A DNA stretch of 64,000 nucleotides. Origin: Eubacteriales bacterium (lineage in GTDB: Bacteria > Bacillota > Clostridia > Oscillospirales > CAG-272). The number at the start of each line of letters is the position of its first letter. The first letter of the stretch is position 1. The stretch is from assembly GCA_045585895.1 (NCBI GenBank), contig JAZMZI010000051.1, positions 12,696 to 76,695 on the forward strand. The letters run 5' to 3'. This document shows, piece by piece, positions 1-14,607 of this stretch. The notes under the pieces were generated by a model. That model ran no database searches and had not been told where the DNA came from. It saw only the letters and a list, made by a program, of their open reading frames with translations. A program made the translations under genes and the position numbers.

Positions 1-550
1 ATTCGAAGGTGTCCGGCGCAATATCATTCCTGAATGCTACCACATAAATTCTTTCTCTGTTCTGTGGCACTCCGAAGTTTTTACTGTTAAGTACTTTGTG
101 GAATACTTTATATCCAAGATCCTCGAAGGTTTTGCAGATAATCTTGAATGTTCTCCCTCTGTCGTGAATTACAAGTCCTTTCACATTCTCACAGAAGATT
201 ACTTTAGGCTTATGATATTCGCAGATTCTTGCAACATCCATGAATAATGTTCCACGGCACATTCCTTTGTAGTTGTCTTCGAATCCCATACGCTGACCCG
301 CCAGACTAAACGCTTGACAAGGAAATCCTGCCAGGCAGATGTCAAACTCAGGCACATCTTTTTCATCAATTTTTGTTATATCTCCTGCTATTGCGAAATC
401 GTCGTCAAAGTTTGCTCTATATGTTTTTTGCGCGTTTTCATCCCATTCGCATACAAACACCGTATCAATATCGTTGCCAAACGCTCTTTCAAAGCCAAGT
501 CGGATTCCACCGATGCCTGCAAATAAGTCTATAGATCTCAGTTTATTCAT
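1..550 (-). CDS. dcm: DNA (cytosine-5)-methyltransferase, first ~183 codons (3' end runs off the window)
   Basis: Absent from the ORF track because it has no stop in the window. Hand translation of the reverse strand from the ATG at 550-548 gives MNKLRSIDLFAGIGGIRLGFERAF...LAGFPCQAFSLAG...FCENVKGL...GVPQNRERIY. These are C5-MTase motifs I (FxGxG), IV (PCQ), VI (ENV) and VIII (QxRxR). The ATG overlaps the vsr stop (ATGA). Confidence 0.9.
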   Translation of the reverse strand, partial: MNKLRSIDLFAGIGGIRLGFERAFGNDIDTVFVCEWDENAQKTYRANFDDDFAIAGDITKIDEKDVPEFDICLAGFPCQAFSLAGQRMGFEDNYKGMCRGTLFMDVARICEYHKPKVIFCENVKGLVIHDRGRTFKIICKTFEDLGYKVFHKVLNSKNFGVPQNRERIYVVAFRNDIAPDTFE

Positions 551-957
551 TTTGAATGTACCGCCTTTTCAATTATATCTGCGCATTGTGCTGTATTCTT
601 TTTGATTTCGTTGCCCCAAAAACGGATTACTGTCCATCCTTCAACTTCGAGTTTTGCAGTTACTTCTGCATCTCGTTCCATATTTCGCTCGATTTTAGGT
701 ATCCAAAATTCTTGGTGCGACTTAAAGTCCTTTTTTCTTTCTTCCCAGTTGTATCCGTGCCAGAACTCGCTATCACAGAAGACCGCAATCTTCCTGCCAA
801 TGAATACAATATCAGGCTTTCCGTATATTCGGTTTACGTTCTTTCTATAACGCAATCCACGATTCCATAGTTCTTTCCGCAACAAGACTTCAATCTTTGA
901 ATCTTTATTTTTAACTTGTTGCATATTGAAGCTTATTTGTTCTTTAGTTTTCTGCAT
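547..957 (-). CDS. vsr: very short patch repair endonuclease
   Basis: 136 aa. Vsr hallmarks are visible: KPDIVF..KIAVFCDSEFWHG and IERNMERD. It is translationally coupled to the downstream C5-MTase, the classic vsr-dcm pairing. Confidence 0.9.
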   Translation of the reverse strand: MQKTKEQISFNMQQVKNKDSKIEVLLRKELWNRGLRYRKNVNRIYGKPDIVFIGRKIAVFCDSEFWHGYNWEERKKDFKSHQEFWIPKIERNMERDAEVTAKLEVEGWTVIRFWGNEIKKNTAQCADIIEKAVHSK

Positions 958-1162
958 TGTTTGGTACTATTTCAACGATATCATCCATTGTACATTCAAG
1001 TGCTGTGCATATCTTAACAAGCACTTCACTGCTTACAACAGCACCATCCTTCTTCATCTTCGCAAGTGTAGCTGGGCTTATTCCGGCTTTCGCAGCGAGC
1101 TCTTTGCTCTTCATTTCACGGTCGATGAGTAGTTTGAAAAGTTTCTTATAGCTTGCAGCCAT
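944..1162 (-). CDS. XRE/Cro-type HTH transcriptional regulator (controller-like, first gene of HTH-vsr-dcm)
   Basis: HTH segment KSKELAAKAGISPATLAKMKKD. I prefer the start at the second Met (1162) because AGGTGG lies 5 nt upstream. The 3' end overlaps the vsr start. Confidence 0.75.
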   Translation of the reverse strand: MAASYKKLFKLLIDREMKSKELAAKAGISPATLAKMKKDGAVVSSEVLVKICTALECTMDDIVEIVPNNAEN

Positions 1163-1197
1163 GTTCCACCTCATAATAAGTATTTTTATACGGTTTT

Positions 1198-1226
1198 ATT
1201 ATATCACTTTTCCATCTAAATTGCAA
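1198..1226 (-). promoter_or_regulatory. sigma-A-type promoter for HTH-vsr-dcm (TTGCAA-17-TATAAT)
   Basis: Reverse strand reads TTGCAA (1226-1221), a 17-nt spacer, then TATAAT (1203-1198). A TTTCGAAA palindrome lies just upstream (about 1235-1242). Confidence 0.55.
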
Positions 1227-1393
1227 GGGGAATTTCGAAAGAATTCAACGAACTTGTAATTTATTAAATCTCATTGTAACCACACATATCAGCACCTCCA
1301 AACGAGCTAACTAATCAGCACATACGGATATGATCACCGCGAAAACTGCTTTTTCTTTGTTTATTGCGGTGCAAATTTTAATTGCTGAACCTC

Positions 1394-1422
1394 TTGACAA
1401 ATGGTTGCAGAAGAGTTACAAT
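1394..1422 (+). promoter_or_regulatory. plus-strand promoter TTGACA-17-TACAAT inside repeat copy A
   Basis: TTGACA at 1394-1399, a 17-nt spacer, TACAAT at 1417-1422. Confidence 0.5.
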
Positions 1423-1429
1423 ACGACGA

Positions 1430-1541
1430 CCCTGGTGGGTAGATTCGGTGATAAAACGACCACAGCAGTTGACCACAAATCCTTGAAATAAAACGATCCG
1501 CTCCCATGAGGCCGAAGCCATCAATTTGGGAGCGGATTTTT
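1430..1541 (+). ncRNA. candidate ~110-nt sRNA (promoter to terminator; no RBS or ORF)
   Basis: Bounded by the promoter at 1394-1422 and an 11-bp hairpin (1496-1506 pairing with 1527-1537) followed by TTTTT. It contains two GACCAC motifs and is convergent with the AEP-helicase gene. Confidence 0.3.
1496..1541. terminator. bidirectional intrinsic terminator-like hairpin
   Basis: ATCCGCTCCCA...TGGGAGCGGAT with TTTTT on the plus strand and TTTTATTT on the minus strand. Confidence 0.6.
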
Positions 1542-1847
1542 ACGACCACATACACGACCATAGACGCGATCGGAGCACCTGGAGACAAGATGCCACGAGA
1601 GCACGAAAGGCCATTTTTGCCGTAGCAGAAAGGTCTGAAAAAAGATAAAATGACCAGAAAAATGTTCAAGTCGCCCTTGGGGTAATGGTGGACTGTATAG
1701 CACACAATGGAATTATTATCACATAATGGACACTATATCACACAAAAAACGTTTTTTTGCTTGTGAACTATCGGTCTCTATCCTTTTTGCACTTTTCATA
1801 TACACATATCAAAACAACTTGCAATAAATGGAAGCCTATGCTATGTA

Positions 1848-4721
1848 TTATAAAACTGTATCCATAAGTTGTCCAGCAATATCTGTGTTTTCGAACCGCA
1901 TAATGCTCTCCTCGTGTGTACCAAAACTGAGGAAATTAACGCTTCCATACCACACAACAGATTGATCGATAACTGTAAATTTCTGATGAAAATCGGATTT
2001 ATAACTAACGATCACGCCGTTTTCTTGTAATTTCTCCGCACACTCGTTAACCGTATCGCGATCTTTATCCTTAAAATCCTCGGGAGGCCGTGTAACTACC
2101 GTTACTTTAACGCCGTTTTCAATAATTGGATCAAGGATTTTAATAAGACTTGTGATCCTGCTCTTCCTCATAAACGGGCTGACGATCAGAATCTCACTTT
2201 GAGCGTTTTGCAAATCATTACAAAATCCGTGATAGAAAGATTTACCGTCATAGATCAGATCGGGAGCCGCATTGATATTTGACAGTAATTTCGTCTTGTA
2301 TCCGATGGAGGAATAGCTTTTCACGCGTTTCTGATACATTCTTTCAAGCACGGGAATATGAATATCCACGTAATCGTACACTTGAACTTCGGTTTTGCCT
2401 TCGAAATTTCTGTGGAGTCTGCCGGCATACTGCGCAACTTTTCCCTTCCATGCAATTGGCAATGCAAGGAATAACGTGTCAAGTCGAGGATAGTCAAAGC
2501 CTTCTCCTACGTATTTACCCGTTGCAACTATGACAACCGATTCATCACCTGGGATAGATTCAAGACGTTCCAGCGTTTCTCTGCGAGATTTTGTGGATGC
2601 TGTTCCTACGAGTTGAATAACATTTTTACAGTAACAAGAAAGCCGTTCTGCAAGCAATGCAACATGCTCGCGCCGTTCTGTCAATACAATTGGATTTCGC
2701 CCCTCTTTTAGTGCTTCGGCAACATCCGAAACAATCATATTATTTCGGATCTCATTCTCGGATAATTTCTTATAGACATCTGTGATGCTTGCTTTTTCTT
2801 TGGATGGATAGCGCGTGTTTGTAAATCTTGGCACAAGATAATGCTCAAAGCTGCGCTTTTCAGCTTGCTCCTTCGCATCAACACGGTATCGAATCGCACC
2901 GCACTGCATGAAAATTATCGGATGATGACCATCCTGTCTTGTCGGCGTTGCGGTCAGACCATACACATATTTCGCGTTTGCATATTTGAGTATCATTTCA
3001 AAGTTAACGGCAGAAACATGGTGACATTCGTCAACAATGATCATCCCGTAGTTCCGCACAAGCTCTTTTACCTCGTCTCCATTAACAAGCGACTGCATAA
3101 CGGCAACATCGACAACGCCGTGTACGGTATCTTTTCCTGCACCGAGAACGCCCACGGGCGACCAAACCTTCCTGCGGCCTCTGCCCTTCTTTTCCTCGGG
3201 CAGTGTTATGTCAAAATGCAGAAAACTTTCAAGAGATTTTTTCCATTGTGTCATCAAAGCCTGTGTATGAACCAATATTAGGGTGTTTGTTTTTCTTTGC
3301 CCAATCATATACGAGCCAATGACCGTCTTACCGAACGCCGTTGTTGCAGATAGAACGCCCGTATTTTGTTCCAATAGCGCATCTGCCGCAGGCTGTTGTT
3401 CCTCGCGCAACTCACCGTTAAAAGTAACAGGGATAATTTCTCCTGAATTGGTTTTATCCTCGATCACATATGACACGTTGGCTTCATCGAGTAGATTGCA
3501 AAGTGCGTCCTCACAACCGCGAGGAATGGCAATATACTCTTCCGTGATGTCGGCTGTGCATATGATTCGTGGCTTATCGTATATGGGCAATCTCATTGCC
3601 TGAGCACGGTAAAAATCGGGATTTTTGAATGCCGCCAAGCGTTTGATCTGATTCTTCGCGTTTGCGGATAATTCTGCCGCAGGAATATACAACATGTTTG
3701 CATGGACGATGTTCAGTACCATAGGGAAATCACTATGCGTAATTTTAATTTTCTTCTTCGTTTCCCAAGGCTTACTATCGGATTCGCTGACGAGTTTACC
3801 AAGCTCTCCGTCCTTGCCGAATGATAAAACGAGTGTTTCCACTGCAGCTGCAGTCATTTTTTGAACAGACGAAAGATATGCCCATTGATCGTCATAAGGA
3901 CGGAATTGCTCATCTACAAACACACTGTTTCCACTTTTCCGTGCCAGTCCTTGTAAAGGCAAAGCAACAAGATTACCGAATCCACCATCGGGCATAGTGT
4001 CTTGGTTGGGAAATAGTCTGTCGTATGACTTGAAAGATAACTCACCGCGCTTCTCCATCGCCTTAGTCAAAATACCGCTTCCAAGCTTACGAGCTAATAC
4101 AGCAGGAACAGGCGACTCGAAGAATATCCAAGCGTGAGCTCCGTTTCCCGAACGGGATCGTTCCACGCATATAGGAACATTTAATTCTTCACATACCTCT
4201 CTAAAAGCAGTAACATCTTTTTCAAACGAGTCATCATCAAAGTCGGCGCATAGAAAATGACAAGTCTCATCCTGTAGCATTGGATAGATTCCTATCACAT
4301 CACGTGGTAATCCATCCTTGCCCTCAAGATGTTTATAAATGTCTTCATCAGTTAAGGATTTTAACACCCGATTGGGACAATTGGCGCACTTGTACTTCCT
4401 TTTGTCGCATAAGCCCTCTGCCCATTCATTTTCACACACGGGCTGATAGCCGCTTTTTCCGCTCGTCGTACTTTGCCACCGTTTTGCAAACACATCCTCC
4501 CTGCCGTGAAACAGTGAACGGAACAACTCGATCTTTTCCTTTGAAGAGCTGTATTTATTTACAGAGGCAGCATGGATTATGGGTATCTCGATATTCTCTT
4601 GAGGTGCCTCTGCAAAGCCAAGCTGCCGCCGCAACTGCAAGTTTTCTTCTGAAAGCCTTTTGTTCTCACGCTCTAATTCATTATAGCGAAGCAAAAGCTC
4701 TCGATATAGCTTCTCATACAT
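1848..4721 (-). CDS. AEP (PrimPol-like primase-polymerase) - SF2 DEAH-type helicase - PLD/HKD nuclease fusion protein, 957 aa
   Basis: N-terminal coiled coil, then Cys knuckle C96/C105/C112/C115. AEP motifs are LCADFD (D160, D162) and SRSGNGAHAW (H196). SF2 motifs are AFGKT (K465), DECH (564-567), TAT (590-592) and QYAGRLHR (764-771). There is one complete HKD motif, HQKFTVIDQSVVWYGSVN (H912, K914, D919, GSxN). Confidence 0.85.
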   Translation of the reverse strand: MYEKLYRELLLRYNELERENKRLSEENLQLRRQLGFAEAPQENIEIPIIHAASVNKYSSSKEKIELFRSLFHGREDVFAKRWQSTTSGKSGYQPVCENEWAEGLCDKRKYKCANCPNRVLKSLTDEDIYKHLEGKDGLPRDVIGIYPMLQDETCHFLCADFDDDSFEKDVTAFREVCEELNVPICVERSRSGNGAHAWIFFESPVPAVLARKLGSGILTKAMEKRGELSFKSYDRLFPNQDTMPDGGFGNLVALPLQGLARKSGNSVFVDEQFRPYDDQWAYLSSVQKMTAAAVETLVLSFGKDGELGKLVSESDSKPWETKKKIKITHSDFPMVLNIVHANMLYIPAAELSANAKNQIKRLAAFKNPDFYRAQAMRLPIYDKPRIICTADITEEYIAIPRGCEDALCNLLDEANVSYVIEDKTNSGEIIPVTFNGELREEQQPAADALLEQNTGVLSATTAFGKTVIGSYMIGQRKTNTLILVHTQALMTQWKKSLESFLHFDITLPEEKKGRGRRKVWSPVGVLGAGKDTVHGVVDVAVMQSLVNGDEVKELVRNYGMIIVDECHHVSAVNFEMILKYANAKYVYGLTATPTRQDGHHPIIFMQCGAIRYRVDAKEQAEKRSFEHYLVPRFTNTRYPSKEKASITDVYKKLSENEIRNNMIVSDVAEALKEGRNPIVLTERREHVALLAERLSCYCKNVIQLVGTASTKSRRETLERLESIPGDESVVIVATGKYVGEGFDYPRLDTLFLALPIAWKGKVAQYAGRLHRNFEGKTEVQVYDYVDIHIPVLERMYQKRVKSYSSIGYKTKLLSNINAAPDLIYDGKSFYHGFCNDLQNAQSEILIVSPFMRKSRITSLIKILDPIIENGVKVTVVTRPPEDFKDKDRDTVNECAEKLQENGVIVSYKSDFHQKFTVIDQSVVWYGSVNFLSFGTHEESIMRFENTDIAGQLMDTVL
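1851..2249 (-). other. PLD-like (HKD) nuclease domain (aa ~825-957)
   Basis: A single HxK(x)4D(x)6GSxN motif. Boundaries are approximate. Confidence 0.8.
2322..3404 (-). other. SF2 helicase core (aa ~440-800)
   Basis: Walker A GKT, DECH box, TAT and QxxGRxxR. Boundaries are approximate. Confidence 0.8.
3822..4559 (-). other. AEP/PrimPol-like domain (aa ~55-300)
   Basis: DxD and sGxGxH catalytic motifs as listed for the parent CDS. Boundaries are approximate. Confidence 0.7.
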
Positions 4722-4736
4722 TTCACAGCCTCGTTT

Positions 4737-6023
4737 TTACGCCATTTTGTATTTCGTTTTATTTCCGTTTCCGACCTTTATAATCAAGCCTTTATCAAGT
4801 AGTGCTGCAATCGCAACAATTGTAGTTGTCTGCGAAAATCCGAGAGCCTTTTGAATCTCCGAGCGAGACTTAATTCCCTCTTTAAGCACAGATAACACAC
4901 CTTGCTCGTTTTCGGTCAACTCAACCTTTGTTTCCTTCACCGCCGCGTTTGTATTAGGCAACGCAATCTTAAATGCGTTATCGGATATTTCTATATGAGG
5001 CTCAAGACCATATTCTCTGTATGCTTCAATAATTTTGGGCATACCCGTTCCGTAAGCTTCAATCAAATGCAAACGATAGAACACATCTGCTAACTTTTTA
5101 TTTCGTGCAATTGAAATACCAAGCAAAATATCACTTTGTGAAATACTTCGCGCTAAGCCACCGATGGATACAAATTCTATTCTGTTATCAAAAATGCTGA
5201 TAAGTGTGCTTGCGGAAAAGCTATATTCTCTGTGAACGATGGCATTCAACAATGCCTCTCTGATTGCTTCCGTAGGATATGCTCTTTTATCAACACGGTA
5301 CAGACCTTCCGTATGTGCGTGTGTATGATTAAACTGATCTATAAACTGATACGCATCGTTAAGCTGCTTTAACAACGAACCGCAAAATTCCCGTCTATCC
5401 TTAAATACCGTCTTTTGCTCGCCTTCAAAAACTGCAATTTTTACAGTATGGGTGCACTGATCTGAAAGTAACAATGCAAGATTGGTATACGTTCCGTCCT
5501 CGCCAATCAAGCCAAGACTTCTCTTCTGTGCTTCGCCGAAAGGAATTTTCTTATTTTCAAAAACAAAATCTGCTTCATTGAAGGTTAATTCCTGAATAAG
5601 CGAGCGCGCCTCCTCATAGCTATCTCCGGCAGTCTCACGTATCATAGAGAGAATTGCACTCTCGGAAGCAGGAACAGATGATGCCCCCTGTCTCACATAT
5701 ACCCCTTCCGGACGAATACCTTTAGCTGCCAAATAGTAAGGACGGGCAGTACCGCGATTAACGGTGATTTTTACAACCTTCTTATCTTGAACGGTTTCTA
5801 CAGTAATATCACAAAACATTGCAAGATCCGGCTTAATCGCATCTCGGTTCACGTTTGACACCTGTAGCATAACTCCGTCAATATTATTGACCTCAACAGC
5901 ATTGACGTCATCGTCAATTCCGATATAAAGATTACCACCATCGGTATTTGCAAAAGCAACAAGCGTCTTTTTTATATCCTCAACATATTCCCTTTTAAAC
6001 TCGGTATTCTTATCTTCCAACAT
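4737..6023 (-). CDS. Schlafen-like AlbA_2 domain protein with HATPase_c_4-like region and C-terminal winged HTH, 428 aa
   Basis: N-terminus NTEFKREY...LVAFANTDGGNLYIGIDDD is the AlbA_2 ('divergent AAA') signature. The central REALLNAIVHREYS is the ATPase-like region typical of these proteins. The C-terminus SEIQKALGFSQTTTIVAIAALLDKGLIIKVGNGNKTKY is a wHTH. Its stop lies 15 nt before the AEP-helicase ATG, which has its own GAGG. Confidence 0.75.
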   Translation of the reverse strand: MLEDKNTEFKREYVEDIKKTLVAFANTDGGNLYIGIDDDVNAVEVNNIDGVMLQVSNVNRDAIKPDLAMFCDITVETVQDKKVVKITVNRGTARPYYLAAKGIRPEGVYVRQGASSVPASESAILSMIRETAGDSYEEARSLIQELTFNEADFVFENKKIPFGEAQKRSLGLIGEDGTYTNLALLLSDQCTHTVKIAVFEGEQKTVFKDRREFCGSLLKQLNDAYQFIDQFNHTHAHTEGLYRVDKRAYPTEAIREALLNAIVHREYSFSASTLISIFDNRIEFVSIGGLARSISQSDILLGISIARNKKLADVFYRLHLIEAYGTGMPKIIEAYREYGLEPHIEISDNAFKIALPNTNAAVKETKVELTENEQGVLSVLKEGIKSRSEIQKALGFSQTTTIVAIAALLDKGLIIKVGNGNKTKYKMA

Positions 6024-6062
6024 ATTTTACCTCCAATTCCGTTACTAACGGTTACTAACGAT

Positions 6063-6091
6063 ATTATATCAGTTATTAGCGTTACTGTCAA
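6063..6091 (-). promoter_or_regulatory. consensus promoter of the AlbA_2 / AEP-helicase-PLD operon
   Basis: Reverse strand reads TTGACA (6091-6086), a 17-nt spacer, then TATAAT (6068-6063), about 40 nt upstream of the ATG at 6023. GGAGG serves as RBS. Confidence 0.65.
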
Positions 6092-6131
6092 TAGATTCTA
6101 TTAAATTATCTCCATTTTTTCGTCGACCTTT

Positions 6132-6290
6132 TTCTTTGTTTATTGCGCCCCAAATTTTGGGGTACGGTAAACGAAAAACGAGGCCCTGTGTATCACAATA
6201 AACGGATACGCAGAGCTTGTTTTTTGACCACATGTTTGACCACTTCGACGATTGGATTACACGGAAACAGTAGTACACGAGAGCACGAAA
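6132..6290. repeat. non-coding module copy B (between the decayed and the intact cassette)
   Basis: TTCTTTGTTTATTGC (6132-6146), perfect palindrome CCCCAAATTTTGGGG (6148-6162), hairpin 6186-6194/6205-6213 plus T-run, GACCAC x2 (6226, 6238) and CACGAGAGCACGAAA (6276-6290). Confidence 0.8.
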
Positions 6291-6313
6291 ATGTACGCTT
6301 TGGTTGACAGAAT

Positions 6314-6340
6314 AGCACTAAAAAGCACTAGATAGCACTA
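6314..6340. repeat. three AGCACTA iterons with exact 10-nt phasing
   Basis: AGCACTA at 6314-6320, 6324-6330 and 6334-6340, immediately after a TTGACA hexamer (6304-6309). Confidence 0.7.
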
Positions 6341-6377
6341 GAAAAATATAAAAATCGGTCTTGGGGTGGTAGAGGCC

Positions 6378-6405
6378 GCAAGTTCAAGTCTTGTCACTCA
6401 GACCA
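6378..6405 (+). other. tRNA gene 3'-end fragment (T-arm + acceptor 3' strand + discriminator A + CCA); no 5' half
   Basis: GCAAG-TTCAAGT-CTTGT gives a G53-C61 pair and a TTCRA T-loop, followed by CACTCAG-A-CCA. The preceding TGGTAGAG resembles a D-loop. No complementary CTGAGTG or anticodon arm can be drawn upstream. Confidence 0.6.
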
Positions 6406-6453
6406 TATCGAGTGTTCATAACAGATTCAAGTTATGGACACTCGATATTTTTT
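6406..6453 (+). terminator. intrinsic terminator (17-bp stem with one G-T, T6)
   Basis: TATCGAGTGTTCATAAC...GTTATGGACACTCGATA followed by TTTTTT. Confidence 0.75.
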
Positions 6454-6490
6454 GATTATGCTTACTTTTCGGTTAAATATTGAGTTGTTT

Positions 6491-6515
6491 TGAGCAGGTT
6501 CGCCTGCTCTTTTTT
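6491..6515 (+). terminator. second plus-strand intrinsic terminator
   Basis: GAGCAGG-TTCG-CCTGCTC followed by TTTTTTT. On the minus strand there is no T-run after the hairpin. Confidence 0.7.
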
Positions 6516-6521
6516 TGGGGG

Positions 6522-7295
6522 TTATACTGCATTAGATAAGTATTCGATGGCTACACCCTTGCGTGAGTCGAGGATAGCATTTTGCAAATCATTACAAAAT
6601 CCGTGGTAGAAAGATTTACCATCATAGATCAGATCAGGAGTAGCATTGATATTTGACAACAACTTCATTTTGTACCCAATAGCGGAATAGCTTTTCACGC
6701 GCTTTTGATACATTCTCTCAAGCACGGGAATATGAATATCCACATAGTCGTAAACCTGCACCTCTGTTTTTCCGTCATATGCAGTAACATCTTTTTCAAA
6801 CGAGTCATCATCAAAGTCGGCACAAAGAAAATGACAAGTCTCATCCTGTAGCATAGGATAAATTCCTATTACATCACGCGCTAATCCTTCCTTGCTCTCA
6901 AGATGTTTATAAATGTCTTCATCAGTTAAGGATTTTAACACCCGATTGGGACAATTGGCGCACTTATACTTCCTTTTGTCGCATAAGCCCTCTGCCCATT
7001 CGTTTACGCATACAGGCTGATATCCGCTTTTGCAGCTCGTCGTGCTTTGCCAACGCCTTGCAAATACATCTTCCCTCCCTTTGAATAGTGAACGGTACAG
7101 TTCGATCTTTTCTTTTGATGAACTGTATTTGTTGATTGCATTTACTTCGCTTACAGAGATTTTGGGGGCATTATCATTCATCTCGGCTAAGCCCGGTTGC
7201 TACCGCATGCGTTCGTTTTCTTCCGCAAGACGCTTATTTTCGCTCTCTAATTCTTTATATCGAAGCCAAAGCTCGTTGTATAACCTCTCATACAT
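6522..7295 (-). pseudogene. decayed paralogue of the AEP-helicase-PLD gene
   Basis: The reading frame starts MYERLYNELWLRYKELESENKRLAEENERMR and then hits an in-frame TAG (7202-7200). The rest matches aa ~50-172 of the intact protein. At about 6779 it jumps directly to aa ~775-840 (GKTEVQVYDY...CNDLQNA). Homology is lost at about 6578. The helicase core and the HKD motif are absent. Nucleotide identity to the intact copy is about 85-90% by eye. Confidence 0.85.
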
Positions 7296-7309
7296 TTTGC
7301 GACCTCAAT

Positions 7310-7461
7310 TTAGACCACTTTATACTTAGTCTTGTTTCCGTTTCCGACTTTTACGATCAAGCCTTTCTCGATTAAGGCAGATATTGTTACTATCGTAGTA
7401 ATATGCTCAAGGAAAAATCATCTTTTGCTTTTTCGATATAACTTACAATACTCTCAAACAT
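7310..7461 (-). pseudogene. remnant of the upstream partner gene: wHTH tail only, frameshifted
   Basis: GGAGG plus ATG (7461) gives MFESIVSYIEKAKDDF. A frameshift follows at a T-run. The other frame reads EHITTIVTISALIEKGLIVKVGNGNKTKYKVV*, matching the last ~32 aa of the 428-aa protein. The 14-nt gap to the pseudo-AEP ATG mirrors the intact operon. Confidence 0.7.
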
Positions 7462-7581
7462 CTAAATTTCCTCCACGCTATATTAACGAAATTTACTTTC
7501 ATATTTTTAATTTATACCACAAATTTCGTCCTTTTTCAACCGCATTATATGAACACGGCGACGGATTTCTCCGCCGCCCTG

Positions 7582-7718
7582 TTCTTTGTTTATTGCTCCC
7601 AATTATTGGGGAACGGTAAATAAAAAATTAAGCTCCGTGCATCACAATTCGGAATGCACGGAGCTATATTTTTTGACCACTTACAGAGTCCGATCACATG
7701 GAGACGAGGGCGCAGTGC
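7582..7718. repeat. non-coding module copy C (between the GNAT stop and the decayed cassette)
   Basis: TTCTTTGTTTATTGC (7582-7596), palindrome CCCAATTATTGGG (7598-7610), 12-bp hairpin (7631-7642/7654-7665), GACCAC (7675-7680) and a degenerate GAGACGAGGGCGCAGTGC. Confidence 0.8.
7622..7674. terminator. bidirectional intrinsic terminator (serves the GNAT gene on the minus strand)
   Basis: AAAAAA, then AGCTCCGTGCAT...ATGCACGGAGCT, then TTTTTT. Confidence 0.75.
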
Positions 7719-7724
7719 TTAAAT

Positions 7725-8264
7725 TTACACGTTAAGTTTCTTATTCCAAGACTCTCTCGTCATAAGAAGCGCGTGACCCGTGCGGGTCTCTCCGAGGAGG
7801 CGGACTTCAATGCCTTCAGCGGTATGGTGATAGGTAAATCCCAGCTTTTCCATCACACGGCGGCTCTTGACATTTCCCTCGTAGTGACCGCACCAGATAC
7901 GCGCCATACCGAGGTCTTCAAAGGCATAGCGGAGTATTTCGCGTGCCGCTTCGGGAATAAGACCCTGCCCCCAAAAGGGCTTGCCGATCCAATAGCCGAG
8001 CTCGTATTCATCGTCGTTTTCGGCAAGGTCGTTGCGGTGGAGGCCTATACTGCCGATGGGCTTGCCGTTTTCTTTGAGGCAAACGGCGTAGGTTTCGGGC
8101 GCGGAAAGCACGTTTTTAATTATCTCACGGCTGTTTTCCACGCTCGTGTGGGGTGGAAATCCCGCAGGCAGACCTATATCGGGGTCGCTTGCGTATTTGT
8201 ATAATTCTTCTGCGTCGTCCTCGCGCCAAGGGCGAAGAATGAGACGTTCCGTTTCAAATGTCAT
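7725..8264 (-). CDS. GNAT family N-acetyltransferase (RimJ/RimL-like)
   Basis: [30 protein letters not shown] and [10 protein letters not shown]. Confidence 0.8.
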
Positions 8265-8279
8265 ATTTTTCTCCTTTTT

Positions 8280-8765
8280 TCAAAAACGATATAAATACTC
8301 GTCTGCCTCTTCTCTGCTCTTGAAAATTATTATGTTTTTATCACTGTATTTTTCAAGCAGATCAAGCACTTTGGGGCGTTCTTTTTCGTTATATTTCTTT
8401 ATAAAATCCAAAAATTCGGTATCCGTTTCGGTCTCGACCCACGGCATATCGCTTCGGGGCTTTCCACGTCTTTCTTTGATACCGTCAAGGCAAATTTCAA
8501 GCGGGAAATCGAGAAAAAAGCAAGTGTCGCAAGCCGCAAGCCGCAGCTCCATCGTTGAGCCGTAATTACCGTCAATTATCCATTCGTCAGCATCAAGAAC
8601 GGCAGAAAGCCTTTCGCGAAAAAGGCTCTTATCAACCGTGGTTTTATCGGAGTTCCAATACATCATATCGAGATGATAAAGCGGAAGCCTCGTCTTTTTA
8701 TGCAATGACCGTGAAAAGGTGCTTTTGCCGCTTCCCGGACAGCCGATCACTATTATTTTTTTCAT
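8280..8765 (-). CDS. P-loop NTPase / nucleotide-kinase-like protein (topology-modulation/adenylate-kinase-like)
   Basis: Walker A GCPGSGKST directly after MKKIIVIG. I use the internal Met (8765) rather than the ORF-track start (8786), which would overlap the radical SAM gene. Confidence 0.6.
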   Translation of the reverse strand: MKKIIVIGCPGSGKSTFSRSLHKKTRLPLYHLDMMYWNSDKTTVDKSLFRERLSAVLDADEWIIDGNYGSTMELRLAACDTCFFLDFPLEICLDGIKERRGKPRSDMPWVETETDTEFLDFIKKYNEKERPKVLDLLEKYSDKNIIIFKSREEADEYLYRF

Positions 8766-8775
8766 ATTTTTACCT

Positions 8776-9525
8776 TTAAGGGGCATAACCCTTTATAATT
8801 TCCATAATGTCTTTTTCACAAACGTTTCCGTCGAGGACGTCACTGTTTGCCGAGAATGAGATACAACGCAGGTCGCGCGGGTCCTCTACGTATGGATTTT
8901 CGGGCTTGGAATTCTTAAAATAATCCGAAAGATACTTAAGCGCGTTGCCCTCTGGGAAAACGATATTTCCCTCTCCCTCGGGGATATTCATATCGTCAAA
9001 GCTATTGAGAAGCTCTTTTGTTTTGCTGTTATAGGGATTTTCATCATCACGGCTTACAAGCCACGCGGGAGAAAGCTTCACGGGGATACCCATTGTTTTC
9101 GCTTCTGCGGCAAAGGTTTTTACCGTGTCAAGCGGAATAGTTTCCTGATGAAAGGCGTCCACCGATAATAACAGGTCGTTTACGCCGCACTCGGCAAGCT
9201 TTTTCGCAACGGAGCGGATTTGCTCAATATTCTTTGAAAAATATCCGTTGGTGATAACCTGACGGCGAGGAATATTCAACTCCTTTGCGGTACTCATAAC
9301 GGCATACACCGCAGTCGGGTGCAAAAGCGGCTCGCCTCCGAACGTCATTACGGTTTTGATATCGTATTCAGCCGCGATCTTTCGCACTGCATCGGCGGCA
9401 ATCTGCGGGTCGATTCGTTCTCCGCAAGAAATATGATCACCTTCGGAGCAGTGCTTGCACCTTCCCGTACAGGCGTTTGTCACCGCGAATTCAATTTTAT
9501 TTAAATTCTTAAGATATTGATTCAT
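8776..9525 (-). CDS. radical SAM protein (small, no SPASM/C-terminal cluster)
   Basis: CTGRCKHC (CxxxCxxC) at aa 19-26 and the GGEPLL motif. Confidence 0.75.
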   Translation of the reverse strand: MNQYLKNLNKIEFAVTNACTGRCKHCSEGDHISCGERIDPQIAADAVRKIAAEYDIKTVMTFGGEPLLHPTAVYAVMSTAKELNIPRRQVITNGYFSKNIEQIRSVAKKLAECGVNDLLLSVDAFHQETIPLDTVKTFAAEAKTMGIPVKLSPAWLVSRDDENPYNSKTKELLNSFDDMNIPEGEGNIVFPEGNALKYLSDYFKNSKPENPYVEDPRDLRCISFSANSDVLDGNVCEKDIMEIIKGYAP

Positions 9526-9688
9526 ATTTAACTTGATCCTTCACTGTGTTTTCGCAAAAAACGATTGCGATTTAATTATACCACCACTCTTTTGAAATAT
9601 CAAGATATAATCAGTTGATTTTCCCATTCACGCATAAAAAAGCGGAAAGACTGCATATTATCATATAAAAAGATCTAAAGGTGGGCAT

Positions 9689-10213
9689 ATGAAACAAAAG
9701 ATAGGACTTTGGCAGTTGATGGGCTTCGCGGTAACGTCGCTCGGCGGAACTATTTTACACTTTTTATACGATTGGCTTGGGAAAGCCGCGTGGATAGCGC
9801 CCTTTTCGGGAGTGAACGAATCGACTTGGGAGCATATGAAGCTTCTTTTTTGGCCGATGTTTATTTTTGCGCTGGTGCAAAGCTTTTTCTTCCGCGACAG
9901 AAAGGATTTTTGGTGCGTTAAGCTTCGCGGAACGCTTTCGGGGCTTACCCTCATACCCGTTCTTTTCTACACCTACAACGGCGTTATCGGCAGATCCCCC
10001 GACTGGCTTAATATAGCAATTTTCTTTATTTCCGCGGCGATCGCTTATATTTACGAAACGAAGCTCTTTAACGAAAACAAATTGAGCTGCAAAACGCAAA
10101 GACGGGCGTTGGCAGCGCTTATAGTGATAGGAATCCTCTTTATAGTCTTCACGTTCTTCACGCCCGAGCTTGGCATTTTCAGAGACCCCTTGACGGGAAC
10201 CTATGGAATATAA
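9689..10213 (+). CDS. polytopic membrane protein (DUF6512-like by recollection)
   Basis: About 5 hydrophobic helices; AAAGGTGGG RBS. Confidence 0.5.
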   Translation: MKQKIGLWQLMGFAVTSLGGTILHFLYDWLGKAAWIAPFSGVNESTWEHMKLLFWPMFIFALVQSFFFRDRKDFWCVKLRGTLSGLTLIPVLFYTYNGVIGRSPDWLNIAIFFISAAIAYIYETKLFNENKLSCKTQRRALAALIVIGILFIVFTFFTPELGIFRDPLTGTYGI

Positions 10214-10395
10214 TTGCGAAAATACCGCAATTATATTTTCATTTTCATTGGACGCACAAAAATTGACTTGCGACGGTGTCGCAAGTCAATTTTTGTGTTA
10301 AGTTATAAATTCAATCGGATTTTTACCAAAGAAATACGTTATAGACACCGACGGCTATCGCCAAAGTGCAAAGGATACGCGCCAAGACGAACATT

Positions 10396-10650
10396 TTACG
10401 GCTTTTTCTGAACACAACGGATATCACCAACGCACCGATCACGGCGAGAACGCTTACGATACCGATCAGAATATCGAAAGGTATCATCCAGAATATACAG
10501 GTCTACGTCAGAGCTTGCCGTGTCCACCGCCGCCTGTCCGTCCTCGGCGCACACCACTGTATAGCCTTCGCCCGAGAGCAAAAGCGTCAGCACGTCGCGT
10601 ATTTCCTTTTAGTCGTCTGCAACAAGAATATATTTTTTCCCGTCTTTCAT
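10396..10650 (-). pseudogene. response-regulator receiver domain remnant
   Basis: MKDGKKYILVADD, then TAA (10611-10609, where GAA would be expected), then KEIRDVLTLLLSGEGYTVVCAEDGQAAVD...DLYILDD. The sequence then loses similarity. No output domain or kinase is nearby. Confidence 0.7.
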
Positions 10651-10772
10651 ACGTTTACCTCGAAATTTATCCGTTTATCGTTTTTCAACTTGATTGTATC
10701 ACAAAACCGTCATTTTGGCAACCGATTTTTCAAATATCACCTATCCGATTTACAAGTTATGAGGATAGTAGG

Positions 10773-11408
10773 TCACGCTTCTTCTCCACCGCGGAGCTTG
10801 AGATCGGCAAGACCGCTCTTATGAAGCAATACCGTACCCAAAAGAAGCGTACCCTGTCCGACTACGTTAACGCCCTCGGCTATCCAGTTCATAACCGCTT
10901 CGGCAAAATCCTGACTCGAAAGATATCCCATACCGAGCGAGCAGATAAAGGATATTGCAAAAATCGCTATAAGCCAAGGCTTTTTAAGCTTTACTGACAA
11001 AATACAGAGCACTACGTCCATGATTCCAAGCCCCGCCACCATAAGTCCTACGAAAACGAAGGTTCCCGAGAATACGGGAGGAACGGTCGCCATAAGTGCG
11101 TTCCCCGACTGCTTATGTATAAGCATAGCAAGAATTCCTATACCCGCAAGCAGAAAACCGATGGATTGAACAGGAAAGAACATATGGTCAAGTGCTTCAA
11201 AATTGCATACACCCGCCGCGTAAAGCAGTTTCCACGTAGCCTTGAGCGCCCCCGCGACAGCAACGTCGATAACGCCTGCCGAGAAAAGCGCAAACGCGCC
11301 CTTGCTCATTTTGTTGTAAAGATCTCGCAGAAGGATCACGGAGGCAATCGCAAAGCAGACGACGGGAATATAATCTACCAATGCCATAGAAACGGAAAAG
11401 TCATTCAT
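10773..11408 (-). CDS. integral membrane protein, unknown function
   Basis: About 6 hydrophobic segments; no recognisable motif. Confidence 0.5.
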   Translation of the reverse strand: MNDFSVSMALVDYIPVVCFAIASVILLRDLYNKMSKGAFALFSAGVIDVAVAGALKATWKLLYAAGVCNFEALDHMFFPVQSIGFLLAGIGILAMLIHKQSGNALMATVPPVFSGTFVFVGLMVAGLGIMDVVLCILSVKLKKPWLIAIFAISFICSLGMGYLSSQDFAEAVMNWIAEGVNVVGQGTLLLGTVLLHKSGLADLKLRGGEEA

Positions 11409-11429
11409 ATGCGTTCTCCTAAAGCTTTT

Positions 11430-12242
11430 TTATTTTTTCTTGTTAAGGTGATAGATGGGAAGCAAAGGAATAATTATAGGGGTCTTATCGGCGTAAGTAT
11501 TGTACTCCTCGTTTTCGCCGTAACGAGCCATCTGACGCTTTTCAAGTCTCTGAGCGCCGTTGAACATAATGTAAACGATGCATATATAAGCGAGAACGGC
11601 AACGATCCACTGACCAACACCCTGATATGCGGTAACGCCGCTTACGAATACGCCCGTCCAGAAAAGGATCTCACCGAGGTAGTTGGGGCAACGGCAGATT
11701 CTGTAAAGCCCTTTAGTTGCGACCATATCGGGGCGAGCCTTCTTCTGCGCTGACTTCTGCTTGTCTGCAATAGACTCAAGAATAAGTCCGAATACTGAAA
11801 TAACAAATCCGACTGCGGGAACGATAAAATCGGTAGAACCGTTATCATAACGGAAAAGCATGGGGCTGACCTGAGCTACGTAAAGAACCGAAACGCACAC
11901 CCATATAGTTACGAGAACGAATATCGGCATCTTCTTTTCACCGTTCTTTGCAAGGGTGTCCTTTGCAACGTCGGTCTTCTTGAAGGTAACGTTCTTAAGC
12001 TCTCTTACGAGAAGGAAACCCGAAAGGCGCGCGCCGTACGCAATAAAGAGCGCGGTCTGAACGAGAACTATCCAAAGAGGAGTTGACGAGGGATTGATGA
12101 GATACATTACGAGAACGGTAATACCGCCTGCCGCTACCGCAAAGCCGTATCCGATAGAGAGAAAATATACGAACTTATAAAATCCTACGGCACAGGCAAC
12201 GGCACAGACCGCAAGAAGAATTCCTAAAAGTGACCAAGGCAT
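11430..12242 (-). CDS. DUF1295 / steroid-5-alpha-reductase-like membrane protein
   Basis: C-terminal GLYRICRCPNYLGEILFWTG motif typical of this family. Confidence 0.6.
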   Translation of the reverse strand: MPWSLLGILLAVCAVACAVGFYKFVYFLSIGYGFAVAAGGITVLVMYLINPSSTPLWIVLVQTALFIAYGARLSGFLLVRELKNVTFKKTDVAKDTLAKNGEKKMPIFVLVTIWVCVSVLYVAQVSPMLFRYDNGSTDFIVPAVGFVISVFGLILESIADKQKSAQKKARPDMVATKGLYRICRCPNYLGEILFWTGVFVSGVTAYQGVGQWIVAVLAYICIVYIMFNGAQRLEKRQMARYGENEEYNTYADKTPIIIPLLPIYHLNKKK

Positions 12243-12243
12243 A

Positions 12244-13110: not shown

Positions 13111-13133
13111 TTTGAATCTTCTCCTTTTATGTA

Positions 13134-14060: not shown

Positions 14061-14082
14061 TTTAAGTCTCCTTTATGTAATA

Positions 14083-14607
14083 TTATTTTTTTAACATCTT
14101 TTCAAACAACGGATAGACCGTTTCAAAATCAGCGCTTTCCATAGACCATGATATAAGCGCCTCGGAAATGAATTCTGCCGTAAATCTCGGTTCTTCTACC
14201 CTTTTCAGCTCGCATAACGGCAGGATAAAATCCGCGATCTGAGCGCGAAGCATTTTATGCCGTGAGGAATAGCCCGTGGGCATAAGCTTTTCCGCATCGG
14301 GGTCGGAAAACAGCTCTTTGTTTTCATCGGCAAAGGCTATAAGCAGATCGTATATTCCTTTTAAGAGAGTTTTGGGTTCGTCGGCGGGAAGGCAAGCCAT
14401 AGCGTTAAGATAGGTCTTCCAATCTTCAAAAACAAAGGTCGCAACCAGCATTTCCTTTGATTCGAAATAATTATATACTGTTCCAACACCCACGCCGCAC
14501 GCGTTTGCGACCGAACGAACGGTGGTTTTTGCATACCCCTGCTCCGCTATCTGCTTTTTCGCCTCGGCAAGGAGCTGCTCTCGCAGATTTTCAATGATCT
14601 TCGGCAT
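14083..14607 (-). CDS. TetR/AcrR family transcriptional regulator
   Basis: TTVRSVANACGVGVGTVYNYFESKE HTH. Confidence 0.85.
   Translation of the reverse strand: MPKIIENLREQLLAEAKKQIAEQGYAKTTVRSVANACGVGVGTVYNYFESKEMLVATFVFEDWKTYLNAMACLPADEPKTLLKGIYDLLIAFADENKELFSDPDAEKLMPTGYSSRHKMLRAQIADFILPLCELKRVEEPRFTAEFISEALISWSMESADFETVYPLFEKMLKK

Follow-up and report, generated by a model that had tools for sequence, protein, structure and literature searches.

Among the described systems to which the locus can be compared, the IS-excision enhancer IEE of E. coli O157:H7 (ECs_1305 / Z1568; Kusumoto 2011; Calvo 2023, PMC9943667) has been characterised genetically and biochemically, and its AEP and SF2 core acts alone in E. 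coli (PMC9943667). IEE is a Mn-dependent polymerase and a DNA-dependent ATPase without unwinding activity. Its microhomology-mediated end joining requires both domains, and unidentified nucleases were postulated by Calvo et al. to trim the ends before joining (PMC9943667). Homologues of IEE have been reported across many phyla. AEP-helicase relatives of the CRISPR-associated Prim-Pols (CAPP) exist also outside CRISPR loci, AEP plus helicase being the commonest architecture of these non-CRISPR relatives (Zabrady 2021, PMC8211822). TOTE conflict systems (TPR, OB, TBP, Effector) are described, in the citation of Aravind, Iyer and Burroughs 2022 given in PMC12458937, as TPR-CSD and TBP genes with effector genes.

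Transcription unit and domain structure

The window, the whole 64-kb stretch of DNA analysed, carries an operon of two genes.

4737..6023 (-), 428-aa AlbA_2 (Schlafen-core-like)–HATPase_c_4–winged-HTH ORF, the 'head' gene (Pfam; PDB 3lmm match)
1848..4721 (-), 957-aa IEE-family ORF (ORF call; Pfam; BLASTP to IEE; AF2; Foldseek)
6063..6091 (-), sigma-70-type promoter TTGACA-17-TATAAT with extended -10 TG (12/12 match)
6041..6060 (-), tandem direct repeat CGTTAGTAAC x2, candidate operator for the wHTH protein (read from the sequence)

The 15 nt between the ORFs contain a GAGG ribosome-binding site (RBS). The promoter, read at 6091..6063(-), is the sole 12/12 match in 8 kb and is kept in the relatives L007, L116, L214 and L218. 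Each CGTTAGTAAC unit contains the palindrome GTTA-N-TAAC, and the repeats sit between the -10 and the RBS. They are identical in L116 (~81 % identical overall) though the flanking bases differ, and are replaced by other repeats in L210/L211, upstream of a divergent 489-aa AlbA_2 variant. An initial annotation had reported the two ORFs, the 15-nt gap and the consensus promoter, and all were found in the sequence. The 428-aa protein comprises SLFN_AlbA_2 (3-119), HATPase_c_4 (275-354) and a winged HTH (366-427), and matches PDB 3lmm with E 3e-11. The 957-aa protein is divided as follows.

4617..4718 (-), residues 2-35, N-terminal single long helix, candidate coiled coil or dimerisation element (DSSP on the AF2 model)
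3834..4538 (-), residues 62-296, AEP (Prim-Pol) domain (PF22548; CAPP structure match)
2307..3413 (-), residues 437-805, SF2 ATPase core (ResIII/DEAD/Helicase_C matches; XPBII 6p4f)
1851..2261 (-), residues 821-957, C-terminal single-HKD PLD-family nuclease domain (PLDc_2; MkoC/DrmC profiles; motif)

Pfam matched AEP-TOTE (PF22548) at 62-296 (E 3e-103), ResIII/DEAD at 437-595, Helicase_C at 670-772 and PLDc_2 at 834-953 (E 1.1e-12, 48 bits, cutoff 27). In the AlphaFold2 model (pLDDT 88, pTM 0.80) the domains are predicted as separate folded units: a disordered linker (residues 36-51, pLDDT <50) follows the N-terminal helix, whose heptad-like L/E pattern is retained in the family consensus, and the PLD domain forms a separate fold behind a flexible linker (815-818). 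The AEP domain presents motif A (D160xD162), motif B (S189..G192xG194xH196), motif C (D234) and a 4-Cys cluster (C96/C105/C112/C115); it matches the CAPP structure 7nqd with E 7e-12 (Foldseek TM 0.81, rmsd 3.4). The SF2 core contains Walker A (G464-K465-T466), DECH (564-567), TAT (590-592) and motif VI (Q764..R768..R771), matches XPBII 6p4f with E 9e-19 and has UvsW, XPB-Bax1 and TFIIH XPB as best Foldseek matches. The PLD motif HxK(x)4D(x)6GSxN is intact (H912-x-K914-x4-D919-x6-G926-S927-x-N929). This domain was matched by the PADLOC profiles MkoC (5e-14), DrmC (2e-8) and DpdK (1.5e-6) and weakly by the NCBIfam models of DpdK, NucT and DrmC. All catalytic-motif positions assigned initially to AEP, 4-Cys cluster, SF2 and HKD were verified, and the domain parsing of both proteins was borne out by Pfam, that of the 957-aa protein also by the separate folds of the AF2 model.

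Relationship to IEE and other described systems

Sequence comparison identified the 957-aa protein as a member of the IEE / Z1568-like family with a C-terminal single-HKD PLD domain. In BLASTP it has 44 % identity to the E. coli O157 IEE (ECs_1305) over 760 aa (645 bits); the stretch is collinear, residues 59-809 corresponding to IEE residues 46-776, and PF22548 matches the two proteins with 3e-103 and 1.7e-98, respectively. They share a Z1568-like AEP domain with motifs A/B/C and the Cys cluster, an intermediate domain and an XPB-like SF2 ATPase with all motifs, and both genes ride on horizontally moving islands. IEE, at 786 aa, ends after the ATPase, whereas in the window protein a PLD nuclease adds ~140 residues. 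The surroundings of IEE in SpLE1 are IS elements, and upstream of it an AlbA_2 gene is missing; the window gene, in contrast, belongs to an array of restriction/Abi-type cassettes and has no IS in its vicinity, and an IS-excision activity like that of IEE is hypothetical for the PLD-bearing members. The architecture had been held to be that of no named system. This stands insofar as PADLOC v2 has no model spanning the entire protein, but the AEP and SF2 core falls in the IEE family (PF22548) and only the PLD domain is extra. The protein is a nuclease-bearing variant of a known family, whose PLD-bearing members are so far uncharacterised.

The family was found in at least 594 species genomes and on 121 plasmids, and its full-length protein was absent from ~50,700 phage genomes. 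Three tail types occur: none (IEE itself), PLD, and a DUF559/Vsr-fold nuclease. The catalytic residues of AEP and ATPase were invariant in 77 of 77 members, with a near-invariant Cys cluster, whereas only 21 of 42 PLD tails present the catalytic HxK; the tail of the window protein is intact. Cleavage thus cannot be the core mechanism of the family, contrary to the first view of the nuclease as a core activity.

Other likenesses are restricted to parts of the protein. SauUSI (type IV, 7clg; partial profile match, 1e-9), DISARM DrmC, Mokosh MkoC and Dpd DpdK share with it the SF2 ATPase and single-HKD PLD modules; these matches cover single domains only, and the systems differ in lacking a polymerase domain, in domain order and in further components that are missing at the window locus. 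Archaeal XPB-Bax1 is the best structural match of the ATPase core and follows the same logic of translocase and nuclease, but Bax1 is a separate, unrelated nuclease, and XPB has no polymerase and acts in nucleotide excision repair. The AEP domain is homologous to and superposable on that of the CAPP-Helicase Prim-Pols; the window locus differs in lying outside any CRISPR-Cas context, and PMC8211822 describes no PLD tail and no link to IEE.

Cassette array and exchange of the head gene

In an island with a GC content of 41.3 % vs 47.1 % in the remainder of the window, defence cassettes form an array linked to tRNA-Pro, and the locus is one of these cargo cassettes.

6127..6163 (-), cassette-boundary element, palindrome CCCCAAAATTTGGGG then GCAATAAACAAAGAAAAAGG (sequence comparison with L007)
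7577..7596 (-), boundary element, second copy, in front of the decayed cassette
1348..1367 (-), boundary element, third copy, in front of the HTH-vsr-dcm cassette
6360..6391 (+), 32-nt fragment, 3' half of tRNA-Pro(GGG), att-like remnant (96.9 % match to intact tRNA-Pro)
6522..7406 (-), decayed tandem copy of the AlbA_2–IEE-like pair (ORFs, Pfam, sequence comparison)
944..1174 (-), Cro/C1-type HTH regulator, opens the next cassette (HTH_26, E 2e-18)
547..957 (-), Vsr very-short-patch repair endonuclease (TIGR00632, E 6.5e-39, above curated cutoff)
1..550 (-), dcm C5 DNA methyltransferase, 5' part (FAGIGG, PCQ and ENV motifs in the translation)

Homology to L007 begins exactly at the boundary element 6127..6163, which recurs in ~23 metagenome contigs in front of differing gene sets. 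The tRNA-Pro fragment separates the decayed copy from the intact cassette; no complete tRNA is present within the window, and in L212/L213 an intact tRNA-Pro sits 6 nt past a solo effector gene. Two blocks of the decayed copy align with the intact pair at 87-91 % DNA identity. The copy retains the AlbA_2 3' end (7406-7310) and the IEE-like N-terminus (7296-7200) with a stop after 31 codons; across an internal deletion, a 219-aa ORF fuses AEP residues ~46-176 to residues ~776-844. In the next cassette the vsr stop codon and the dcm start codon share bases in ATGA. L210 and L214 possess orthologous cassettes that encode DNA_methylase; in L210 the downstream cassette is the same as in the window, and Mrr lies upstream. 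The HTH-vsr-dcm genes beside the locus, the lower GC content of the island and the decayed second copy in tandem, all noted in the initial annotation, were confirmed by profiles, base composition and DNA identity. The proposed defence-island setting was also correct: vsr-dcm adjoins the locus, and the neighbours of the family are rich in AAA_14-DUF4143 (PADLOC PDC-S01), AbiEi/Eii, RhuM-Fic, Abi_2, restriction enzymes and integrases, an enrichment judged from a neighbour census without formal genomic background.

The slot upstream of the effector gene is filled in relatives by AAA_14-DUF4143, AbiEii, DUF1016, RhuM-Fic or Abi_2, and the nearest sister lineage (71 % identity) carries DUF1016. An 88 %-identical effector gene, intact in the two independent samples L212/L213, stands solo, the AlbA_2 ORF in front of it being reduced to 40 nt. 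Conversely, AlbA_2 genes 93-97 % identical to that of the window head another module of a RecQ-like helicase and a DprA-like protein, in which homology to the window breaks 8 nt past the AlbA_2 stop. The fixed pairing with a Schlafen-like sensor, as first proposed, is not supported by these observations. The pair is kept as a unit in L007, L116 and L210. AlbA_2 partners were found at three places in the PLD clade. Partner and effector of the window are equally diverged from those of Gemmiger (52.0 % and 52.3 %), thus the pairing can stay stable over long periods and a functional interaction is possible. Judged from these sequences, the AlbA_2 gene is not an obligate partner of the effector gene but an exchangeable DNA-binding 'head' that also fronts other defence-island effectors. 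Overall, the observations of the initial annotation were confirmed in every detail tested and its interpretation was partly supported.

Proposed role and alternative explanations

The explanation that we favour, at a probability of about 60 %, is a PLD-tipped IEE homologue that attacks mobile DNA and is expressed behind a modular regulatory head. By analogy with the biochemistry of IEE and from the folds, the SF2 module, which is XPB-like, would be a DNA-dependent ATPase gripping or translocating on duplex DNA, not a classical unwinding helicase, and the AEP domain would extend 3' ends and re-align them by short microhomologies (template switching or end joining). As the PLD domain has only one HKD half-site, two copies must come together to form an active site, like those of Nuc and BfiI, and the long N-terminal helix may supply the dimerisation. 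The domain could add cleavage or end-processing of captured DNA. Together, these activities would abort and destroy replicative intermediates of mobile DNA, such as IS copy-out intermediates as for IEE, possibly also plasmids or phage. The head would consist of promoter, operator and DNA-binding protein, and its 3' end would be the point of recombination with varying effector tails. The AlbA_2 protein is most likely a regulator, as suggested by the wHTH, the conserved repeats and the modularity; it would autoregulate and gate downstream expression by binding the GTTAnTAAC repeats that follow the -10 in tandem. Against a regulatory role, AlbA_2/Schlafen domains can themselves act as nucleases or sensors. 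WYL-domain BrxR/CapW are shared defence-island regulators. They resemble the AlbA_2 head as DNA-binding genes with their own promoter/operator that front varied effectors and are exchanged as modules, but they have a wHTH-WYL fold instead of AlbA_2, HATPase_c_4 and wHTH, and regulation by the AlbA_2 family is putative.

A strict IEE function would comprise transposase-dependent excision of copy-out-paste-in IS with microhomology-mediated end joining of the donor site, the PLD domain serving end resection, without a role against phage or plasmids. The collinear identity to IEE and the wide distribution of its homologues agree with it, and a fused nuclease would fill the end-processing gap postulated by Calvo et al. 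We nevertheless consider it unlikely: a limited test detected no IS transposase in the 64-kb window, the gene is cargo of an exchangeable cassette beside restriction and Abi-type genes, and the family shows swapping or inactivation of the nuclease tails, as is typical of conflict effectors. The negative result for the transposase also counts against the explanation favoured above, as do the PLD tails without HxK. A fixed, undescribed two-component defence system, in which an AlbA_2/Schlafen-like sensor activates a dedicated polymerase-translocase-nuclease effector, appears somewhat less probable still. Co-transcription across 15 nt, the pair kept in L007, L116 and L210, its equal divergence in Gemmiger, the recurrence of AlbA_2 partners in the PLD clade and the lack of a whole-protein PADLOC model speak for such a system; the varying upstream slot, DUF1016 in the sister lineage, the intact solo effector gene and the near-identical AlbA_2 gene in front of an unrelated module speak against it, as does the AEP-SF2 core that works alone as IEE in E. 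coli (PMC9943667).

Membership in a TOTE conflict system, with the 957-aa protein as effector, is very improbable. The TOTE label mentioned in the initial annotation was correct, since 'TOTE conflict system, AEP domain' is the name of the Pfam model that gave 3e-103, and a setting of biological conflict is shared. Yet E. coli IEE matches the same model and sits outside such a system. The TPR-OB and TBP genes that define TOTE in the cited description are missing at the window locus and in the sampled relatives: no TPR, OB/CSD or TBP gene was found in the window island or right flank, among the recurrent families of 119 neighbours of 44 PLD-class loci or among the 30 immediate upstream genes scanned, thus the locus does not constitute a complete TOTE system. 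Slightly more remote is a primase-helicase for the replication of a mobile element, or a CAPP of CRISPR adaptation. AEP-helicase fusions replicate many plasmids, the AEP domain is structurally closest to CAPP, and the PADLOC Cas-associated PrimPol profile matches the protein at 1.6e-90; however, the cassette holds neither cas genes nor replication modules, the phage genomes lack the full-length protein, the ATPase is an XPB-like SF2 enzyme and not a hexameric replicative helicase, and the gene is exchangeable cargo rather than backbone.

The 957-aa protein and the excision enhancer of E. coli

The operon layout proposed in the initial annotation was confirmed. Both open reading frames are real and are separated by 15 nt that include a GAGG ribosome-binding site; 40 nt lie between the end of a single perfect promoter and the first ATG.

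6091..6063, minus strand: sigma-70 promoter, TTGACA-17 nt-TATAAT with an extended -10 TG, the only perfect consensus in the first 8 kb
4737..6023, minus strand: open reading frame (ORF call), 428-aa AlbA_2 protein, the upstream partner
1848..4721, minus strand: open reading frame (ORF call), 957-aa AEP-SF2 ATPase-PLD protein

By sequence, the 957-aa protein is a homologue of the IS-excision enhancer (IEE; ECs_1305, Z1568) of E. coli O157 (Sakai) that bears a single-HKD PLD domain. BLASTP aligned it to ECs_1305 with 44 % identity over 760 residues (645 bits), window residues 59-809 being collinear with IEE 46-776, and PF22548 matched IEE too (E 1.7e-98), thus the window protein is an IEE homologue with about 140 extra C-terminal residues. 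IEE is a 786-aa protein, a "Z1568-like" AEP fused to an SF2 ATPase (PMC9943667). The N-terminal AEP and the C-terminal ATPase are both present in the window protein with all motifs, and K465 is equivalent to K451 of IEE, R768/R771 of motif VI to R735. However, IEE ends after the ATPase, whereas the window protein continues with the PLD domain (821-957). The initial impression of an architecture found in no named system did not hold: the core is that of IEE, of the Z1568-like AEP family and of Pfam AEP-TOTE, and AEP-helicase relatives outside CRISPR loci had already been noted by Zabrady et al. (PMC8211822). The core architecture is known, and the nuclease-tailed form is a variant of the IEE family. 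Among the literature matches listed was no paper on a defence system combining primase-polymerase, helicase and PLD; undescribed in the accessible literature are the link of IEE to nuclease-tailed clades, their defence-island context, the frequent PLD inactivation and the modular AlbA_2 head.

Pfam assigned AEP-TOTE to residues 62-296 (E 3e-103), ResIII/DEAD to 437-595, Helicase_C to 670-772 and PLDc_2 to 834-953 (E 1e-12, 48.4 bits versus a cutoff of 27). A motif check on the sequence found all residue numbers of the initial annotation correct. The AEP motifs A (hDhD; D160, D162), B (sGxGxH; H196) and C (hD; D234) are present, and the HxK(x)4D(x)6GSxN motif of the tail is complete (H912, K914, D919, G926, S927, N929), with a single HKD per chain; this motif in a PLDc_2 fold is shared with Nuc/BfiI-type PLD nucleases. 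An AlphaFold2 model built with 30 family sequences (pLDDT 88, pTM 0.80) divided the chain as follows.

2-35: long N-terminal helix, followed by a disordered linker
~60-300: AEP domain
~335-430: alpha/beta domain
~435-805: two-lobed ATPase
815-818: flexible hinge
821-957: compact C-terminal (PLD) domain

The nearest structures to the ATPase core (Foldseek) were T4 UvsW, archaeal XPB, including XPB-Bax1 helicase-nuclease complexes, and TFIIH XPB. In this whole-model search any match of the PLD domain was swamped by helicase matches, and the C-terminal 160 residues returned only spurious designed-PPR matches from PDB sequences.

Family, named systems and mechanism

Until now IEE has been an oddity known from pathogenic E. 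coli, and its mechanism is debated. A very large multi-phylum family, in which nuclease tails were repeatedly gained or lost, has IEE as its tail-less form. An exhaustive profile-free search yielded 2,841 clusters (50 % identity) at E <= 1e-30, and at least 594 loci were confirmed in species-representative genomes; the phyla among the matches listed were Bacillota, Bacteroidota, Desulfobacterota, Pseudomonadota, Verrucomicrobiota, Chlamydiota, Actinomycetota and others. In public records these proteins are named just "DEAD/DEAH box helicase family protein". Three architectures occur: tail-less (~800 aa, IEE proper), PLD-tailed (~950 aa) and tailed with a DUF559/REase_MTES_1575 domain of Vsr fold (~950 aa). 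In a neighbour-joining tree of the common core, the PLD forms are one major clade that includes the window protein, and the DUF559 forms are a clade nested among tail-less forms. The latter clade is mainly from Verrucomicrobiota, Planctomycetota and Chlamydiota, and its tail occupies the C-terminal ~175 residues, as seen at five loci of relatives (L053, L056, L075, L083, L087). The catalytic residues of AEP and ATPase were invariant in all 77 intact members examined, whereas HxK was kept in 21 of 42 PLD tails, with the structural D and G retained in all. This identifies the polymerase-ATPase as the engine and the nuclease as an optional, often inactivated accessory. In the window protein and in close relatives the PLD motif is complete; HxK-less tails read for example NQRYAVVD or SLHTAIID (C-terminal ~110 residues, PLD-class loci L009-L051). 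The family is carried by 121 sequenced plasmids, the best-matching plasmid records being of the tail-less form, and a full-length family protein was not found in ~50,700 phage genomes.

Several named systems share parts with this locus. The label "TOTE" of the initial annotation proved to be the Pfam name of the AEP domain; it stands for TPR, OB, TBP, Effector (PMC12458937). An effector with an AEP-TOTE domain is present, but neither a TPR-OB (TPR-CSD) gene nor a TBP-like gene was found in window 1-15366, among the 30 immediate upstream genes or among the recurrent families of a neighbour census (119 genes within two positions of the IEE-like gene at 44 PLD-class loci). The locus thus lies outside the TOTE definition despite the domain name, and a full TOTE system was rejected. 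For CAPP, the AEP domain is homologous to the MpCAPP Prim-Pol (7nqd, E 6.6e-12, TM 0.81, rmsd 3.4 Å), and the PADLOC profile PDLC01465 for Cas-associated PrimPol matched at 1.6e-90, while NCBIfam PrimPol_Msp scored 119 bits, under its cutoff of 200; CAPP was rejected because cas genes were absent from the identified genes of window 1-15366 and from the census. DISARM, Mokosh and Dpd gave single-domain partial matches only (DrmC, MkoC, MkoB, DpdK). Of the full sets (DrmA/B/C, MkoA/B/C, Dpd genes), no other component was found in the island, and membership in DISARM or Mokosh was rejected since the component set is not present. A replicative primase-helicase was considered and rejected as well.

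The AEP domain of IEE is a Mn-dependent, error-prone, template-dependent DNA polymerase, for which primase activity was not reported; the DNA-dependent ATPase activity is lost in K451A, duplex unwinding was not observed, and both domains are required to join 3' overhangs that share 4 bp or more of microhomology (PMC9943667). Genetically, IEE stimulates the transposase-dependent excision of IS families using circular copy-out intermediates, and the IS-excision, Mn-dependent polymerase and MMEJ activities are known only for E. coli IEE (PMC9943667; bioRxiv 10.1101/2023.06.07.543989). By homology we infer the same polymerase-ATPase engine in the window protein. The XPB-like module would hold or track duplex DNA and the AEP domain would extend and re-align 3' ends. 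In Nuc and BfiI, one HKD half-site must pair with a second copy. By analogy, the PLD half-site would have to pair with that of a second chain, the N-terminal helix 2-35 of the model being a candidate dimeriser. The putative PLD nuclease would add cleavage or resection at the step of end processing for which Calvo et al. expressly postulate a nuclease yet to be identified (PMC9943667); the fused domain would supply this "missing" activity of the IEE model.

The AlbA_2 gene as a probable portable head

The partner was matched by SLFN_AlbA_2 (3e-19), HATPase_c_4 (1.3e-15) and winged HTH families of the TrmB/HTH_27 type (366-427), and PDB 3lmm matched its middle region and C-terminal winged HTH (E 3.4e-11). 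This fits the COG2865-type layout of N-terminal AlbA_2, central HATPase_c_4 and C-terminal winged HTH; the COG2865 literature offered nothing useful on the function of the partner.

A fixed two-gene defence system, as claimed initially, was not supported: the upstream slot varies, a close homologue stands alone, and the same head precedes unrelated effectors. Neighbours were extracted for 83 loci. Upstream sequence of 1.5 kb or more was available at 65 of them, and at 40 of these 65 a co-oriented gene lay within 150 nt upstream.

Upstream gene of the IEE-like gene in the PLD clade (L numbers denote loci of relatives)
AlbA_2-HATPase_c_4: window, L007, L024, L042, L036
AAA_14-DUF4143: L010, L018, L029, L040
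AbiEii: L027, L034, L050
AbiEi: L030
DUF1016/YhcG: L001
RhuM-Fic: L015
Abi_2: L043
XhoI: L023
type IIG R-M enzyme: L031

The remaining PLD-clade loci had unrelated genes in this position; in the tail-less and DUF559 classes AbiEii, AbiEi, FRG, SNF2 and a PIN-associated domain were observed. AlbA_2 partners appear at three separate places on the core tree, and in L001 (71 % identical), which represents the sister lineage nearest to the window, DUF1016 takes the place of AlbA_2. A solo homologue of equal length, 88 % identical, was recovered from two independent metagenomes, 311 nt after a UPRTase gene. Its similarity to the window starts only 38 nt ahead of the AlbA_2 stop codon, so this locus keeps a stub of the lost partner.

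Conversely, AlbA_2 proteins 93 % and 97 % identical to that of the window precede a 692-aa RecQ-like helicase and a 316-aa DprA-like protein, a pair that stands in place of the IEE-like gene on at least six contigs. The RecQ-like helicase is unrelated to the window protein except for SF2 motif II. On the DNA level, the window and a contig with this module share 95.7 % identity over 1,678 nt, a stretch that reaches from the upstream spacer across the AlbA_2 ORF and breaks off 8 nt past the stop codon. The module of AlbA_2, RecQ-like DEAD/ResIII and DprA-like (DNA_processg_A) genes was found on contigs L214-L219 (genes ~8350-11381) and is a candidate for an uncharacterised defence module; in L214 it occupies the same hot spot, with HTH-Vsr-Dcm-HpaII downstream. 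The AlbA_2/IEE-like pairing can nevertheless be stable: it is kept in the relative L210 (86 % identical), and both genes of the window have diverged to an equal extent from those of Gemmiger (52.0 % and 52.3 %). In our reading, the AlbA_2 gene and its promoter form a portable head, and recombination at the 3' end of this gene joins it to different tails carrying effectors. Since it heads different effectors, a general class of regulators or sensors for defence islands is suggested, comparable to the WYL regulators of such islands.

A possible operator lies between promoter and start codon.

6041-6060: tandem CGTTAGTAAC repeats, each with GTTA-N-TAAC

The CGTTAGTAAC repeats are perfectly kept in a relative only ~81 % identical overall, and other repeats stand in their place ahead of a divergent AlbA_2 variant. 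This pattern would be consistent with autoregulation by the winged HTH, the repeats being a candidate operator.

Cassette array and proposed role against mobile DNA

The initial description of the surroundings was accurate: the island is AT-richer (GC 41.3 % versus 47.1 % in the remaining window), HTH, Vsr and a partial Dcm gene are located downstream, and a decayed second copy of the IEE-like gene lies at 6522-7406. Fragmentary or decayed extra copies beside intact ones were also seen in unrelated genomes (L014, 3828-4966; L048, 14126-14515), which may point to tandem insertion or to recurrent replacement of cassettes. The neighbour census was led by AAA_14-DUF4143 (PADLOC candidate PDC-S01), AlbA_2-HATPase_c_4, AbiEi/AbiEii, PDDEXK_9 ATPases, integrases, RhuM, restriction enzymes and the PADLOC candidates PDC-S05 and PDC-S23. 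In Bacteroidota, AAA_14-DUF4143 is the commonest co-oriented upstream neighbour of IEE-like genes (L010, L018, L029, L040, L052). Taken as a set, the upstream genes are similar to accessory genes that are frequently found within type I R-M operons. The family lives among restriction, Abi and toxin-antitoxin genes, which places IEE in genome-conflict biology.

Each cassette carries, ~120-230 nt ahead of its first gene, an element of ~45 nt composed of the palindrome CCCCAAATATTTGGG followed by GCAATAAACAAAGAAAAAGG. It marks the 5' edge of successive cassettes that bear promoters.

Copies and settings of the ~45-nt element
7596, 6146 and 1367 (within 7577-7596, 6127-6163 and 1348-1367), minus strand: window
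6577, 11646 and 14615: relative L007
elsewhere: two copies enclosing a PIN_8 gene
elsewhere: ahead of GIY-YIG-DUF4357 (PADLOC PDC-S14) with a type I methylase (HsdM)
elsewhere: ahead of WYL, LexA-like and ArsR regulators
elsewhere: ahead of a tyrosine integrase

This element is the exact point at which the homology between the window and L007 sets in, and the homology extends precisely to the stop codon of the 957-aa gene. The 20-nt motif of the element had one match in viral contigs and 119 in metagenomes, mostly single and chance-like, with extended context in ~23. The hairpin was no more stable on folding than shuffled sequence (z -0.62), and a structured attC-like site or terminator at this boundary was therefore dropped. 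A complete tRNA-Pro(GGG) lies 6 nt past the stop of the solo homologue (contigs L212, 12880-12958, and L213, 3583-3661), and a 32-nt piece of the same tRNA survives at window 6360-6391, between decayed copy and intact cassette. Serial integration at a tRNA gene typically leaves such a pattern of an abutting tRNA and a surviving piece, which suggests integration of this kind at tRNA-Pro. The cassette array at tRNA-Pro, bounded by the ~45-nt element, may be a new exchange platform for defence genes in gut Clostridia.

The cassette setting, the swapping of tails and the lack of a full-length copy in phages make, on genomic grounds, a general role against mobile DNA more likely than pure housekeeping. 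A more far-reaching joint reading, to which we give a chance of about one in four, regards the whole family, E. coli IEE included, as immune effectors that are widespread, consist of a single protein and act against replicating mobile DNA: the polymerase would hijack 3' ends of the invader, the XPB-like motor would hold the duplex, and the optional PLD or Vsr-fold tails would cut. In this island the effector would be wired to the AlbA_2-winged HTH head, a portable switch responding to infection or damage. Several unrelated effectors would have this head in common, and recombination at a fixed joint would exchange it; the setting would be an integron-like array of cassettes with promoters, marked by the 45-nt element.

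No RNA family reached the Rfam curated threshold in the island and its spacers; matches were sub-threshold only. A sub-threshold match to "uup" (both strands, 28 bits versus a gathering score of 36.8) fell on a 21-bp inverted repeat directly after the GNAT gene (7622-7674), which is probably a bidirectional terminator at the island edge. The right flank of the window consists of ordinary metabolism genes. At the other side, the vsr stop and dcm start codons overlap (ATGA, 547-550). The restriction partners of the orthologous HTH-Vsr cassette differ among relatives: Z1, DUF6339 and DUF4420 genes stand ahead of Dcm in L210 (13615-22853), and Dcm and HpaII accompany it in L214 (12520-15287).
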